64,000 nt of DNA from sequence record PP989838.1; one strand, written 5' to 3'. This document shows positions 3,766 to 37,397 of this stretch, in pieces; position 1 is the stretch's first letter; the number at the start of each line of letters is the position of its first letter. Both the position numbers and the translations under genes were made by a program. Origin of the DNA: Escherichia phage VTCCBPA_211. The notes beneath the pieces were generated by a model. It had not been told where the DNA came from. It saw only the letters and a program-made list of their open reading frames with translations, and did no database searches.

Positions 3766-4665
3766 ATGGCTAAAATCTTTACTCTGGTTAACGAATCTGG
3801 TTTTAATGCTCTGGCTAACAATATCCGTAGCAATAATGCAGCGATCAAACAGGATGTTTCTAATTTTCTGTTAGGGCACTTACAGCACTTCCGTAGCAAC
3901 GGTAAAAAGTTAGACGTATTGCAGTCGGCGGTTGATTTTCTGTTAACCGAACGTTTCCGCGATATGGATGTTATTGCTACCGCAATCACTTTCTTAACTC
4001 CTATCAAGTTTAACACTGATGCGGCGAATGGTCGTAAGAAGTGGATTAATCTGGAAGGTGAAGCGAAAGCGAAAGAAGATGCGAAAGAAGCGCAAATTAA
4101 AACCAAAATGGAGCAAAACCGCGCTCGCTGGTCAAACGCTTTCGAAAACTTCGCGTTAGGTCGTGAAATTGAAGTCGATAACCCTAACTTCTTCAAAGGT
4201 TGCAATGACAACGTAGCGGCACACCTGCAAATTCCGGCAAAGAATAAAGAAGACTTTAACCAAGATATTTACGCTTTGGTTGAACGCTTGAATGCAATCC
4301 GTATTGAAGCCAAATTACTGGCTGATGAGCGCAACGGCGCAACCAGTGATAATACTATCGCCTTAAGTGAAGAAGTGGGCAAGGTTAAAAAGTCCTTTGA
4401 TTCACTCATCAAGAAAGTCACGGCATCGACGGTAGCGATCTCAGATGATTATCTGATGAACGCATCAAGCAAGGAGCTGGAATCACTCGATTCATACGCT
4501 GATGAAATGGAAAAGACTGTTGCAGCTATGCAGGAGAAGTTAGAAAGTCTGCGCGGTCGTATCTCTTCAACGGTTGCTACCCGTACCGAACAAGCTGCGA
4601 AAGAAGAAGAGGAAGAAGTATTGCGTAAAGCTGCTGAAATTATGGCGGCACGTCAGGCGGCATAA
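3766..4665 (+). CDS. early protein, unknown function (acidic/coiled C-terminal half)
   Basis: ATG 3766 preceded by SD gaaaggtga; 299 aa ORF followed by intrinsic terminator. Confidence 0.7.
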   Translation: MAKIFTLVNESGFNALANNIRSNNAAIKQDVSNFLLGHLQHFRSNGKKLDVLQSAVDFLLTERFRDMDVIATAITFLTPIKFNTDAANGRKKWINLEGEAKAKEDAKEAQIKTKMEQNRARWSNAFENFALGREIEVDNPNFFKGCNDNVAAHLQIPAKNKEDFNQDIYALVERLNAIRIEAKLLADERNGATSDNTIALSEEVGKVKKSFDSLIKKVTASTVAISDDYLMNASSKELESLDSYADEMEKTVAAMQEKLESLRGRISSTVATRTEQAAKEEEEEVLRKAAEIMAARQAA

Positions 4666-9379: not shown

Positions 9380-9456
9380 GCGCCCTTAGTTCAATTGGAC
9401 AGAACATCGGATTTCTAATCCGTCGGTTACAGGTTCGAATCCTGTAGGGTGCGCCA
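9380..9456 (+). tRNA. tRNA-Arg (anticodon UCU)
   Basis: Hand-folded cloverleaf: acceptor GCGCCCT/AGGGTGC, D-arm GTTC..GAAC, anticodon loop TTTCTAA, T-arm ACAGG TTCGAAT CCTGT, 3' CCA encoded. Confidence 0.8.
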
Positions 9457-30704: not shown

Positions 30705-30938
30705 ATGAAAATCAAACATATTACAGATATTCAGGAGGCATTTAGGATGCTTCCTCGAAGAGAGAAGGATAAGATTAAAAAGCTTATTCAAGTTTATGGT
30801 CATACATCTAAAGATGATGTAGACTATATGCCTTCTACTTTCGTAGAGTGTGGGATTGCTCGCGGTTTCACATTCGACCATAAAGTGTTTCAGCAATTCG
30901 TTGACCACTGGAGAAAAGATGGAAAAGAAAGTCTGTAG
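30705..30938 (+). CDS. hypothetical protein
   Basis: ORF. Confidence 0.5.
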   Translation: MKIKHITDIQEAFRMLPRREKDKIKKLIQVYGHTSKDDVDYMPSTFVECGIARGFTFDHKVFQQFVDHWRKDGKESL

Positions 30939-31104
30939 CTTCTGTAAGAAAGAAAAGCCGATCATCAATTTTAAGCCCAATCCTGTGACTGGTTTGTCTC
31001 ATGTTATGTGCCACTCCTGTAGGACATACCTTGAAACAAAGCACACTATCAATAGGTTGCACTATTATCACCCAACAACATTCAAATTTAAGGTTGTGAA
31101 ATGA
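30919..31104 (+). CDS. small CxxC protein
   Basis: ATG 30919; CSFC...CHSC. Confidence 0.45.
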   Translation: MEKKVCSFCKKEKPIINFKPNPVTGLSHVMCHSCRTYLETKHTINRLHYYHPTTFKFKVVK

Positions 31105-34694: not shown

Positions 34695-36071
34695 GTGAGC
34701 AACCCGGACGCTCTTCCATTTTTGACAGAGATGACTGTCGCTGATATAATCTCTAAGCAAGCAAAGCACGGAGTGAGTTTCAACCGAAGAAATGCTCGGT
34801 GGTATGTTCACCTCCTTAAAGAGATTATTGTTAATATTGACAGAGAGTTGATTCCTCTCTTACCTAAGATGAGATTAGACGGCTCTACTTATATGAAGCC
34901 GTTTAAGAAGTCTGGAGCTTTACAGAAGTGGCCTCAAGCTTATTGTGATAGGGTTGGGCTGAAGAGAGAAGATATTGGTGGAGCTTTCACCTGTGTCGAA
35001 TATGTAGACTTTGACCCATCGAAAGATGCACGAGTTAAAGAAGCTCTTATGGATGAGGGCTTTCTTCCTCCAGAGTTTAATGTATCTAAGAAGCCTTGGA
35101 ATACTTTCGAAATTAAGAAAGATATGAGAAAGTATGGAACATACCAAGCATGGTATACTGCTTGGATGCGAGGCAATGCTAAGCAGAAGCAGACAGCCGA
35201 GATGGTTGACGCTGATATTAAGAAGTTCTTAGAAAAGCATTTCAGGTTTAAAACTAAGAACTATATGAAGGCTTACGTATTTGGTTTGGGATTAAACCCT
35301 AATCGTCGTAATCCTGTAACGTTTGATGAGATTAAGAAAGCGCTAGCCACATCAAACAAGTGGCCTACAGCTCCTACAAACCTCGAGGAGACTCTTGAAG
35401 AAGGGTTAGGGGGTGAGCTAGGGAGTGTCGGAAGTTTGCTTAAGAGACGCGTTGTAGCGGCTCACAGGCTAGGTCTTATCAGTGGACTTATAGCAAAGGA
35501 ACGCGAAGATGGTAAACTTTCGGCAGAAGCTAACAGCTGCGCTACGCCGACTTTTCGATTCAAACATCGTATCGTGGTTAATATTCCCTCCCGTGGTCTG
35601 TTTGGTCACGAGTGTCGCAGTTTGTTTGAGTCTGACTATAACTCAGACAGTGATCACTCTCGTCCTTTCGTTATTACTAACGCTGTTCCTGATGGTTGTT
35701 ATATACGAAAAGGTACTAACGTAATTTACGAGAAAGGTAAGCCGGGGAAGAAAGACAAACCTGTAGGCGCTTACAAATATTACATACCCGCTGGTAAAGA
35801 AGTATTCTTAGGGTATGATGGTTCTGGACTTGAACTTCGTATGTTAGTGCATTATCTTGTGAAAGAGTGCCTTGACATGATGGAAGAAGCCAAAGCAGAG
35901 AACGATAAAATTAAGTATCTAAGGGCTGAGAAAGGTTTAGAGGCTGCTTATACTTATCGAGAGGTTCTTCTCTCAGGTGATATCCATTCCCACAACCAGA
36001 AACTAGCTGGCCTACCAACTAGAGATAATGCAAAGACGTTTAACACAATGGGCGTCTATAAATTCCTTTAA
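34695..36071 (+). CDS. family A DNA polymerase, polymerase-domain 5' exon (coding likely ends near 36040-36041)
   Basis: Motif A GYDGSGLELRMLV; ORF ends ...PTRDNAKTF then runs into insertion. Confidence 0.8.
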   Translation: MSNPDALPFLTEMTVADIISKQAKHGVSFNRRNARWYVHLLKEIIVNIDRELIPLLPKMRLDGSTYMKPFKKSGALQKWPQAYCDRVGLKREDIGGAFTCVEYVDFDPSKDARVKEALMDEGFLPPEFNVSKKPWNTFEIKKDMRKYGTYQAWYTAWMRGNAKQKQTAEMVDADIKKFLEKHFRFKTKNYMKAYVFGLGLNPNRRNPVTFDEIKKALATSNKWPTAPTNLEETLEEGLGGELGSVGSLLKRRVVAAHRLGLISGLIAKEREDGKLSAEANSCATPTFRFKHRIVVNIPSRGLFGHECRSLFESDYNSDSDHSRPFVITNAVPDGCYIRKGTNVIYEKGKPGKKDKPVGAYKYYIPAGKEVFLGYDGSGLELRMLVHYLVKECLDMMEEAKAENDKIKYLRAEKGLEAAYTYREVLLSGDIHSHNQKLAGLPTRDNAKTFNTMGVYKFL

Positions 36072-36729
36072 TTCGGTGGACATCTAGAACAGATAATACC
36101 GAGCCAAGCCATCCAATCTGCCTTGAAGACAAGGAGGTGGATTATGATTTGCAGGATTTGTAAAGAAGATAAAAGCGAAGACAATTTCCACAGAAACAGA
36201 ACAAACGTGACTGGACTAGACTACAGGTGTAAAGCTTGTAGGAGAGAAGAAGCACGAATTGGAAGAGAGAGCAATTACTTCCAACACTACTGTAGAGGAA
36301 AGAAATCTGAATGTAAGATAAAGGGTTATGATTTTGACTTAACTCCAGAGTTCTTAGAAGAGATTTGGACAGGATATTGTCCAATATTTGGTGTAGAAAT
36401 CTCAAGAGCTTCGGAAGGAAGAGGATCTCACAACTCAGCACATTTGGACAGAATAGATTCAAGTAAGGGTTACCTAATAGGTAACGTATCTTGGATTAGC
36501 GGCAGAGCAAACCGTATAAAATATGATGCTACTGCTAAAGAGCTTAGATCTATTGCAGATTGGATGGAAGGTGTAACGACTAGTCGTGATGAGTTTAGCG
36601 ACGTAGGGCCAAGCGGCTCGAAACAAGGAACCTCTTAAAAGAGGAAGAGATAGTCTGCTCTGCATGGGGACATGCAGCAGTTCATAAGAGAACGGGGGGA
36701 GTGGTAGCGTACTCCCTTGAACATCAGGT
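36041..36729 (+). mobile_element. putative group I intron with HNH ORF splitting DNA polymerase motif B (boundaries approximate)
   Basis: Upstream exon ends RDNAKTF, downstream frame resumes IYGFLYGAGAAKIGEIVGGG, i.e. the contiguous T7-type motif B as I recall it. Confidence 0.5.
36144..36638 (+). CDS. HNH homing endonuclease
   Basis: SD aaggaggtgg; Cys-rich N-terminus and HLDRIDSSKGYLIGNVSWISGRAN. Confidence 0.8.
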   Translation: MICRICKEDKSEDNFHRNRTNVTGLDYRCKACRREEARIGRESNYFQHYCRGKKSECKIKGYDFDLTPEFLEEIWTGYCPIFGVEISRASEGRGSHNSAHLDRIDSSKGYLIGNVSWISGRANRIKYDATAKELRSIADWMEGVTTSRDEFSDVGPSGSKQGTS

Positions 36730-37227
36730 ATCTATGGATTTCTATATGGGGCAGGCGCAGCTAAGATTGGAGAGATTGTTGGAGGAGGCGCTCAAGAGGG
36801 TGAAATTCTCAGAGAACGTTTCTTAGCAGAATGCCCTTGTATCCCAATTGTCTTGGAGAGAGTACAAGCTCGTGCAGAAACAGGCACTCTTGAAGGTGTG
36901 GATGGTCGTAAGTTGACCATGAGACGGGATGCCACTGGTAAAGTTATGGTTCATAAAGCACTAAACACTTTACTTCAGAGTGCGGGTGCTATTGTCATGA
37001 AATATTCTATTCTCTTCACAAACAAGTGGGTAGATCAGCAGAACATTAGGGGTAACAAAGTAATTGACTACCATGATGAAGCTCAGTGGTCTGTTAACCG
37101 TAACGATGTTGATAAGATGAAAAAGATAGCTGAGACTTGTGTCAAGAAGGCGGGTGAGTACCTAAACATGCACTGTGAGCTAGCTTCTGATTGTAAAATC
37201 GGACTGAATTGGATGCAAACTCACTAA
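36709..37227 (+). CDS. family A DNA polymerase 3' exon (motif B remainder, motif C); splice acceptor likely near 36729
   Basis: Frame open from 36709: GIYGFLYGAG...VIDYHDEAQW (motif C HDE). Confidence 0.8.
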
Positions 37228-37397
37228 ACACAGAACTGAAAGAATAGAATACAAATGAACTAGTCTTATTGATTAGTTCATAATAAGGAGATTGAAGTGG
37301 AAGAGATGCCATCGGATTGGTGTTATCGTCAGAGCGCCATCTGTAATGAACAAGGACGTCCTGATGAAGCTGAGTTTTATTTAGAACTAGCTGAACT

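Follow-up and report, generated by a model that had tools for sequence, protein, structure and literature searches.

The DNA analysed here (hereafter, the window) is a stretch of 64,000 nucleotides (nt) from Escherichia phage VTCCBPA_211 (PP989838.1), which, judging from its sequence, is a Kuravirus-type (phiEco32/SU10-like; Gordonclarkvirinae) Escherichia coli phage. At positions 34695–37227 it carries a gene for a family A DNA polymerase that is interrupted by an insertion of 688 nt, and the insertion holds an open reading frame (ORF) for a putative nuclease. In a megablast search, the top match to 34695–37227 is Escherichia phage SDYTW1-F1-2-2_3 (hereafter, SDYTW1), with 95% identity, and about 90 further Kuraviruses follow below it. 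The features of the locus are given here one per line, each with its strand and, in parentheses, the evidence on which it stands; the ten introns counted in several lines are the homologous introns described further below.

34695–36040, + strand: exon 1 of the family A DNA polymerase gene, ending with ...RDNAKT and the TT of a Phe codon (alignments, profile, T7 match)
36034–36040, + strand: P1 5′ strand, exon AGACGUU, in which the 5′ splice-site U (U36040) pairs with G36051 (7 of 7 pairs kept in 10 of 10 introns)
36041–36728, + strand: probable td-like group I intron of subgroup IA2, 688 nt (alignment, fold, covariance models, similarity to T4 introns)
36051–36057, + strand: P1 3′ strand, the internal guide sequence GGCGUCU (fold and alignment)
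36063–36068, + strand: P3 5′ strand UUCCUU (6 of 6 pairs change on both sides, 100% paired)
36069–36071, + strand: in-frame UAA in J3/4 that ends the unspliced exon 1 reading (reading frame)
36072–36103, + strand: P4 (36072–78 with 36097–103) around P5 (36082–85 with 36091–94) (fold, covariance model)
36109–36121, + strand: P6/P6a 5′ strand CCAUCCAAUCUGC (13-bp duplex across the ORF; present in 10 of 10 introns)
36131–36138, + strand: Shine-Dalgarno sequence AAGGAGGU, 5 nt upstream of the nuclease ATG (read from the sequence)
36144–36638, + strand: intron ORF, 164 amino acids, putative PacI-like ββα-metal (HNH-superfamily) homing endonuclease (PHROG, profile, AlphaFold2 model)
36555–36567, + strand: P6/P6a 3′ strand GCAGAUUGGAUGG, which also encodes A-D-W-M of the nuclease (duplex folding)
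36576–36581, + strand: P7 5′ strand, A-(C bulge)-GACU, with the guanosine-binding G-C pair (invariant in 10 of 10 introns)
36583–36602, + strand: P7.1 hairpin (alignment, covariance model)
36606–36619, + strand: P7.2 hairpin (compensatory changes relative to contig L013, described below)
36625–36630, + strand: P3 3′ strand AAGGAA (fold, comparison with L013)
36631–36644, + strand: P8 hairpin (alignment)
36645–36656, + strand: J8/7 (AAGAGAU) followed by the P7 3′ strand (AGUCU, 36652–56), the group I core signature (alignment, covariance model)
36660–36717, + strand: P9 (36660–66/36671–77), P9.1 (36680–83/36690–93) and P9.2 (36696–702/36711–17) (fold, covariance model)
36728, + strand: terminal guanosine (omega-G) and 3′ splice site (10 of 10 introns end ...GG before exon UAU)
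36729–37227, + strand: exon 2 of the DNA polymerase gene, the T of the Phe codon and then IYGFLYGAG... to the stop codon at 37225–37227 (Pfam, PHROG, T7 match)

The upstream ORF (34695–36071) reaches the C-terminal residues ...LPTRDNAKTF (LAGLPTRDNAKTF) and then reads NTMGVYKFL before its stop codon. The polymerase frame, frame 1, picks up again at 36730 with IYGFLYGAGAAKIGEIVGGG / IYGFLYGAGAAKIG and runs to the stop codon at 37225–37227. The insertion falls between the F and the I of RDNAKTF/IYGFLYGAG (here and below, a slash within a sequence marks the insertion site), which is motif B, or the O-helix, of the family A DNA polymerases. The intronless polymerase genes of the Kuraviruses SDYTW1, SU10, ES17, Paul and EK5 are 1845 nt long, exactly 2533 minus 688. 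A three-way alignment places the insertion inside ...AAGACGTT[T/A]...CAGG[T/A]TCTATGG with a positional ambiguity of 1–3 nt, and 36041–36728 (688 nt) is the sole choice of boundaries that leaves a U at the end of the exon and a G at the end of the intron. An earlier reading of the letters by themselves (the sequence-only reading) had recognised this insertion and given it as 36041–36729 and about 690 nt; the insertion stands, while its end and length are corrected here.

Do the two halves form one protein? In the PHROG DNA-polymerase profile, exon 1 covers the positions up to 1068 and exon 2 starts at 1069. Pfam DNA_pol_A matches the joined protein in one stretch across the joint (residues 363–611, 74.8 bits); exon 2 by itself scores 59.2 bits, and exon 1 by itself is not matched. 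In addition, a phmmer comparison aligns the joined protein with the T7 DNA polymerase in a single stretch (E-value 2.5e-36, residues 421–613 against 490–697), within which the 19 residues LPTRDNAKTFIYGFLYGAG are identical. Because the PHROG, Pfam and T7 alignments all run through the joint, the two polymerase halves belong together. The joined exons provide a contiguous motif B (R..K...F/Y...YG) and the complete palm and fingers, and the one-stretch Pfam and T7 alignments bear out the proposal of the sequence-only reading that RDNAKTF-IYGFLYGAG is the contiguous T7-type motif. The split polymerase gene with its exact 688-nt insertion is real, far beyond chance.

Without splicing, the exon 1 reading ends at the UAA at 36069–36071 in J3/4, nine codons into the intron, with a product of about 458 amino acids; the in-frame position of this stop codon is kept in the introns of the relatives. 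In exon 2, the first start codon after the in-frame stop at 36718–36720 is a TTG at 36853, and a separate exon 2 product would be 41 residues short, among them IYGFLYGAG, the second half of motif B. The same reading frames bear on whether the interruption is an intein or is crossed by ribosomal hopping of the T4 gene 60 type. Such elements would suit an interruption in a highly conserved catalytic motif, which is a typical intein position, but the length of 688 nt is not divisible by 3, the polymerase frame meets stop codons at 36069–71 and 36718–20, and the internal ORF, with a Shine-Dalgarno sequence and an ATG of its own, lies in another register and lacks intein motifs. We know of no precedent for a 688-nt ribosomal hop, and we consider this explanation to be barely credible. 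An intein, a translational bypass and a group II intron were all ruled out on the reading frames and the structure.

A blastn search with the insertion retrieved homologous insertions in the family A polymerase genes of other phages. The T7-like carriers include Yersinia phages Berlin, Yepe2 and Yep-phi, Pectobacterium phage Jarilo, Salmonella phage Vi06, Aeromonas phage PT2, Erwinia phage phiEa100, Escherichia phage ULINTec4 and Klebsiella phage RCIP0053, and the carriers in Grimontviridae are Salmonella phage PKM.Hi.22.6 and Aeromonas phage BUCT695. The nine introns examined are all inserted behind AAGACGTT, at one and the same nucleotide, and have ...GG as their 3′ end, followed by TAT. Ten homologous introns, from Autographiviridae, Grimontviridae and the window phage, occupy the identical codon. 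In GenBank, the Berlin polymerase is a coding sequence (CDS) joined from two pieces, and the polymerase halves of PT2, PKM.Hi.22.6, BUCT695, phiEa100, Jarilo and ULINTec4 are annotated as separate CDSs or hypothetical proteins.

These many records with two separate CDSs would agree with a gene in pieces, in which a free-standing homing-endonuclease gene splits the polymerase, and the halves are translated apart and form a two-chain enzyme without splicing. Kuraviruses already have the 3′-5′ exonuclease domain as a separate gene, and a functional split gene is documented, as the citing article relates, in the nrdA gene of Aeromonas phage Aeh1, which is split by mobE (Friedrich et al. 2007, cited in PMC8351571). 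Nevertheless, exon 2 of the window offers neither a start codon nor a ribosome-binding site between the stop at 36718–36720 and the TTG at 36853, every allele that has the intron preserves the complementarity of the exon 1 end to the guide, and a complete, covarying group I core with the U·G pair and the terminal G would be needless for a free-standing gene. On this evidence, a two-chain polymerase is very unlikely.

The insertion is organised as a group I intron. First, at the 5′ boundary, AGACGUU pairs with GGCGUCU at 7 of 7 positions in all ten introns, and the splice-site pair U36040·G36051 is a wobble pair. Second, the core from P3 to P8 includes the P3/P7 pseudoknot and the P7 bulge and G-C pair, and its J8/7–P7 segment reads AAGAGAUAGUCU; both J8/7 and P7 of the window are identical to the family consensus. 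Finally, the intron ends with G36728, at the sole boundary that fits the intronless sequence. The presence of P7.1 and P7.2 joined by G-U-A is the mark of subgroup IA2 (PMC3428280), and the window intron has P7.1, a GUA linker and P7.2 between P7 and P3′, with both hairpins covarying. P2 is absent. For P9.1, a long-range GUUCA/UGAAC pairing was considered and dropped; the local hairpin covaries in PKM.Hi.22.6, BUCT695, phiEa100 and Vi06.

We then scored this named structure on a MAFFT alignment of the ten homologous introns, from which the ORF loop had been removed. Standard pairs occupy 92.1% of the cells, as compared to 36–41% when the 3′ partners are slid by 1–3 columns, and 47 of the 75 pairs change on both sides; none of 500 shuffles reached the observed values. 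The long-range helix P3 is fully paired and covaries at all six of its pairs. MAFFT left inner P6, inner P7.1 and, in Vi06, P7.1–P3′ partly out of register, which lowers the paired share of these helices to 77–88%. Because the inner P6 pairs were affected, P6 was tested separately by duplex folding, which found a duplex of 12–14 bp across the ORF in 10 of 10 introns (−18 to −28 kcal/mol), even in introns whose ORF belongs to another protein family.

The window intron also folds well by itself. Without its ORF it reaches −98.2 kcal/mol (z = −5.97), and P1, P3, P4/P5, P6, P7.1, P7.2, P8 and P9 all emerge unaided in its minimum-energy fold. Covariance models built from the relatives only, with the window excluded, match the window at 36033–36118 (97.5 bits, E-value 1e-21) and 36568–36734 (131.9 bits, E-value 1.5e-32). 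All of the core helices are intact, with 100% standard pairs in P1, P3, P4, P7 and P9. A prediction of the intron structure had been proposed as a check by the sequence-only reading, and P1 and P3–P9.2 were found, with covariation across the ten introns.

What kind of nuclease does the intron encode? The ORF matches PHROG families labelled endonuclease, endonuclease VII and HNH, with E-values from 7e-33 to 2e-9, and a large protein collection contains 202 homologues, none with any Pfam domain and the best full-length match 81% identical. In an alignment of 68 homologues, C79, L101, D102, R103, G109, Y110, N114, A122, N123, K126 and E133 are invariant, and C3, C6, C29 and C32, which form an N-terminal zinc ribbon (CxxC...CxxC), are nearly so. 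The profile of these homologues matches the restriction enzyme PacI (3LDY) over the whole length (E-value 6.6e-4) and aligns D102/R103/Y110/N114/N123/K126 with PacI D92/R93/Y100/N104/N113/K116. The AlphaFold2 model of the nuclease (mean pLDDT 88.8; β98–103, β115–119, α120–124) has PacI 3ldy as its top Foldseek match (E-value 5.6e-4, probability 1.0), and weak matches to the HNH domains of Cas9, Gme, Cap5 and ColE7 follow below it.

The model and the profile both display the ββα-metal fold of the HNH/His-Me finger superfamily. The position of the catalytic His in canonical HNH enzymes (Pfam HNH, HNH_3 and Endonuclease_7) is occupied by Arg103, which is invariant in the 68 homologues, and the ORF has the marks of the PacI-like group (His-Me finger group 20): the loop Tyr110 in place of His, the Asp/Asn ligands and the zinc ribbon. 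PacI itself lacks the catalytic histidine of the HNH enzymes and has a loop tyrosine in its place (PMC5714182, PMC3384342). As far as the alignment and the model indicate, the intron ORF is a nuclease of the PacI type within the HNH superfamily, with Asp-Arg for Asp-His, and not a canonical HNH enzyme. The "HNH gene" that the sequence-only reading had seen in the insertion is correct at the level of the superfamily, and it does not hold for canonical HNH. Comparison with a related contig (L012, described below) yields proportions of nonsynonymous and synonymous differences (pN and pS) of 0.10 and 0.77, respectively, and the ORF is evidently under purifying selection.

The last ~27 codons of the nuclease ORF overlap P6′, P7, P7.1, P7.2, P3′ and P8, and its stop codon lies in the P8 loop. 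An overlap of ORF and core has been described for the td intron (PMC3073962), and the overlap in the window extends this kind. The cargo of P6a varies among the homologous introns: PT2, Vi06, ULINTec4 and BUCT695 carry the same nuclease family as the window (54–65% amino-acid identity), PKM.Hi.22.6 and phiEa100 carry truncated PacI-like remnants (78 and 81 amino acids, respectively), and the loop of Berlin, Jarilo and RCIP0053 contains an HNH gene of the Endo VII type that is unrelated to this family. A search of IMG/VR with the single nuclease protein returned no relatives, and a search with the nuclease alignment returned more than 537. Because a simple motif scan finds a td-like core motif beside the ORF in only about 4 of the best 80 IMG/VR loci, the nuclease family is mostly free-standing.

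Elsewhere in the window, a stop-to-stop ORF of 85 codons at 30847–31101 is weakly similar to the nuclease family profile (E-value 3e-5). It matches phrog_15951 (unknown function) at 9e-45 and phrog_2340 (endonuclease) weakly, and it could encode a free-standing zinc-ribbon protein or be the relic of a nuclease gene.

Taken with the reading frames, the fold and the homologous introns, the insertion at 36041–36728 is, with a probability of about 0.92, a mobile, td-like group I intron of subgroup IA2 that carries its own nuclease ORF and sits in motif B of the polymerase. The hallmarks of IA2, the covariation, the introns at the same codon (including the joined CDS of Berlin) and the lack of a start codon in exon 2 support the earlier proposal that a functional polymerase requires precise RNA splicing.

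Several observations weigh against this assignment. The splicing of the polymerase intron is inferred from the sequence, the fold and the established biology of group I introns. No convincing P10 pairing was found; the best candidate, of 3 bp (AUG 36048–50 with UAU 36729–31), is not kept in Vi06. P1 and P7 are invariant across the ten introns and provide no evidence from covariation. The Rfam model RF00028 (Intron_gpI) matches only the 3′ part of the window intron, with 19.4 bits (E-value 0.09) against a gathering score of 50, and gives 24–39 bits (E-values 5e-7 to 0.015), all below 50, for relatives with shorter ORFs; these low scores are plausibly due to the ~455-nt ORF loop inside P6a. As for the nuclease, the ORF has no Pfam or NCBIfam match even at E-values up to 10 and no direct match in the PDB by phmmer, the Foldseek TM-score between its model and PacI is low (0.35–0.40), and its catalysis, in the absence of the canonical His, would hinge on a PacI-like tyrosine mechanism. 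Moreover, the nuclease gene of a Kuravirus contig with the same intron (L013) starts with ATA, not ATG, so that this gene can decay.

That lost start codon, together with the truncated nuclease ORFs of PKM.Hi.22.6 and phiEa100, is what would be expected of homing elements, which degenerate, and it raises the question of whether the window intron is itself decayed: splicing would be inefficient, which would make the polymerase gene a pseudogene, or else the genome would be defective or a variant produced by assembly. The window argues otherwise, as its core helices are intact, its J8/7 and P7 have the family consensus, and both polymerase exons are open and encode a protein 98% identical to the polymerase of the intronless SDYTW1. 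In addition, we saw no other catalytic subunit of a family A polymerase in the window, and the loss of this one would probably be lethal. We regard a decayed intron as slightly less probable even than the two-chain polymerase, and retain the group I intron with its nuclease as the reading of the locus.

How would this intron be removed and spread? On the pre-mRNA, P1 would form between the exon AGACGUU and the guide GGCGUCU, with the U·G wobble at the splice site, and the core from P3 to P9 would fold around a P6a loop of ~455 nt in which the ORF lies. Splicing would begin with the attack of an exogenous guanosine, docked in P7, after U36040, and the freed exon 1 would then attack after the terminal G36728. 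The ligated product ...AAGACGUU/UAUCUAUGG... would restore the Phe-Ile codons and the 614-residue polymerase; at the level of the DNA letters, the spliced junction would read AAGACGTT/TATCTATGG, and the peptide across the junction would be (D)NAKTFIYGFLYGAGAAK, with TFIYGFLYGAGAAK as the stretch spanned. Ribosomes on unspliced RNA would halt at the conserved UAA of J3/4, and the nuclease would be translated independently from its own ribosome-binding site. By analogy with established homing biology, from which we infer its activity, its target and homing itself, the nuclease most likely makes a cut or a nick close to the insertion site in polymerase alleles that lack the intron, and repair would copy the intron and the flanking exon sequence into them.

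The presence of the polymerase intron in three phage families is an indirect sign of mobility. All of the intron-plus alleles have the exon sequence AGACGUU, with 7 of 7 pairs to the guide; the corresponding site in the intronless Kuraviruses is mostly AAACGUU, and AAACUUU in SDYTW1, the closest intronless allele.

In the phage collection, no record covers at least 80% of the polymerase intron at more than 66% identity, and no isolate carries this intron in a Kuravirus. Two contigs from sequencing runs, L012 and L013, do carry it in a Kuravirus. L012 is 73% identical to the window and has the same architecture. L013 (Logan SRR27212853; 1310 nt) is 90.5% identical to 36006–37314 and has the same intron, with compensatory changes in P3 (U-A to C-G) and P7.2. 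L013 and the window are ~100% identical over 36540–36870, that is, the 3′ part of the intron and the first ~140 nt of exon 2, with flanks at ~88–90%; this near-identical tract across the 3′ splice site appears to be an indirect sign of mobility. A full-text search for Kuravirus together with intron returned nothing relevant. The kind of intron is well known; the host lineage is new for the polymerase intron, and a PacI-like nuclease is new for an intron.

A further locus, L020 (IMGVR_UViG_3300010278_000156), has a motif B intron with a PacI-like ORF (at 2986) and a second core motif, GAUGAUAUAGUCC, ~1 kb downstream (at 4034), which suggests two introns in or near the polymerase gene.

The polymerase gene of the window is a mosaic. 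From nt 1 to ~1110 it is 97–100% identical to those of SU10, ES17 and EK5, while from ~1126 to its end it is only 57–86% identical to them. The divergent 3′ cassette belongs to a rare allele, found also in SDYTW1 (94% identity) and in XT18, XT32 and XT73 (85%), and encodes the T7-like IYGFLYGAGAA, as compared to the usual Kuravirus IYAFNYGAGDA (SU10 type, IYAFNYGAG). The breakpoint lies at ~35805–35830 (gene nt ~1110–1140), ~215 nt upstream of the intron. This mosaic, a further indirect sign of mobility, would fit a long tract of co-conversion or recombination associated with the intron.

At the insertion site itself, SDYTW1 (L001, 4336–4350; site AAAACTTTT/ATC) can be compared with 36030–36041 of the window. 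The 35 nt before the insertion are identical but for two synonymous changes, and the first 42 nt after it are identical. The two changes sit in the last 8 nt of the exon (AAAACTTT against AAGACGTT), the stretch that forms P1 and in which binding of a homing nuclease is expected. The SDYTW1 allele could have arisen by intron loss with escape of the target site, or could be a resistant allele that was never invaded.

These observations can be combined into a tentative picture, to which we assign somewhat less than an even chance. The nuclease would be an active homing enzyme of the PacI type, using its loop Tyr, and the first intron-encoded member of that group, and the intron would be a shuttle that moves among unrelated phages of E. 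coli and other enterobacteria (Autographiviridae, Grimontviridae and a Kuravirus) at one polymerase codon, swapping PacI-like and Endo VII-like cassettes in P6a and dragging T7-like motif B exon sequence with it. Within this picture, the dragged exon sequence could be the source of the ~715-nt divergent 3′ polymerase cassette.

The window contains a second IA2 intron of the same family at 23635–24373 (739 nt), in the primase/helicase gene (exons 22387–23634 and 24374–24916). It was found with the covariance models of the polymerase intron (R1, 49.5 bits, E-value 6.5e-10; R2, 53 bits, E-value 4.6e-12). The primase/helicase gene of phiEco32 is exactly 739 nt shorter and 98.7% identical, and the spliced gene product is identical to that of phiEco32 across the junction FLYDNFG/QNEWED. 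A synonymous change from GGA to GGT gives this intron its splice-site U. Its ORF (23743–24273) encodes a canonical I-HmuI-like protein with HNH_3 and NUMOD4 domains. In the phage collection, no record covers this second intron beyond its ~90-nt core. The sole Rfam match at the gathering score in the whole window is a tRNA gene at 9380–9453 (67.6 bits).

For annotation, the recognition of the polymerase intron restores one essential polymerase gene from what is now called, in this phage and in numerous relatives on deposit, as two genes or hypotheticals plus an endonuclease. Kuraviruses such as SU10, ES17 and phiEco32 are therapeutic and model coliphages for which group I introns with homing nucleases had not been reported, and two introns in one genome, in the polymerase and primase/helicase genes, are a natural system for homing-driven exchange among co-infecting phages. 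The occupation of one codon in three phage families by introns with two unrelated nuclease genes is a clean case of an intron and its nuclease evolving as separate modules. Moreover, viral contigs contain more than 500 relatives of the PacI-like nuclease family, for which Pfam has no model, and the family is a candidate source of new enzymes that nick or cut long sites.

How does the intron compare with known systems? Group I introns in gene 5 (DNA polymerase) of the T7-like phages PhiI and W31 were reportedly described by Bonocora and Shub in 2004. Polymerase group I introns with HNH-type nucleases are known from SPO1, SP82, Bastille, PhiI/W31, Pf-WMP3 and phiL7, and those of PhiI/W31 are placed at "site 881 (E. 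coli numbering)" (PMC3428280). In our alignment and numbering, the motif B site of the Berlin-type introns corresponds to approximately E. coli 760/761 and to T7 F524/I525. Site 881 does not correspond to motif B: the introns of PhiI/W31 may differ in position from that of Berlin, or the published numbering may be in error.

The introns of SPO1, SP82, Bastille and Pf-WMP3 (I-HmuI, I-HmuII, I-BasI and I-PfoP3I) resemble that of the window in being IA2 introns in conserved regions of the family A polymerase genes of lytic phages, and they encode nicking homing endonucleases of the HNH superfamily (PMC3428280). They differ in their position (E. coli 674, as compared to ~760/761 in the window) and in their nucleases, which are canonical, His-containing HNH enzymes. 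The ORF of the SPO1 intron lies in P8 (PMC3073962), whereas that of the window lies in P6a.

With PacI (3LDY/3M7K; His-Me finger group 20, Jablonska et al. 2017), the window nuclease shares the zinc ribbon, the Asp-Arg pair, the loop Tyr, the Asn and the Asn-x-x-Lys. The second zinc site of PacI (C109/C112) is not conserved, and the overall identity is 19%. PacI is a bacterial, homodimeric restriction enzyme with an 8-bp site, whereas the window protein is putative and encoded in a phage intron; PacI-like genes in phages have been reported only as rare free-standing genes (Skunavirus, PMC12724721).

The td, nrdB and nrdD (sunY) introns of T4 have the same architecture, with P7.1/P7.2, an ORF looped out from P6a and the 3′ end of the ORF over the core helices (PMC3073962). 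Their 3′ cores (P7–P9.2) are 72–75% identical to that of the window over ~125 nt, and the 3′ core of the window also matches IA2 introns in many other phages. The T4 introns reside in other host genes and encode other nucleases (the GIY-YIG enzymes I-TevI and I-TevII, and I-TevIII). P2, absent from the window intron, is present in the td intron of T4.

Finally, the introns of the T7-like phages Berlin, Jarilo, Vi06, PT2 and phiEa100 lie at the same point (AAGACGUU/U ... G/UAU, the F/I of motif B). Like the window intron, they have the same guide sequence, no P2, the P7.1/P7.2 hairpins and an ORF that runs from P6a into the core. Their hosts are Autographiviridae, while the host of the window intron is a Kuravirus (Gordonclarkvirinae), and their ribozyme part is 69–77% identical to that of the window.

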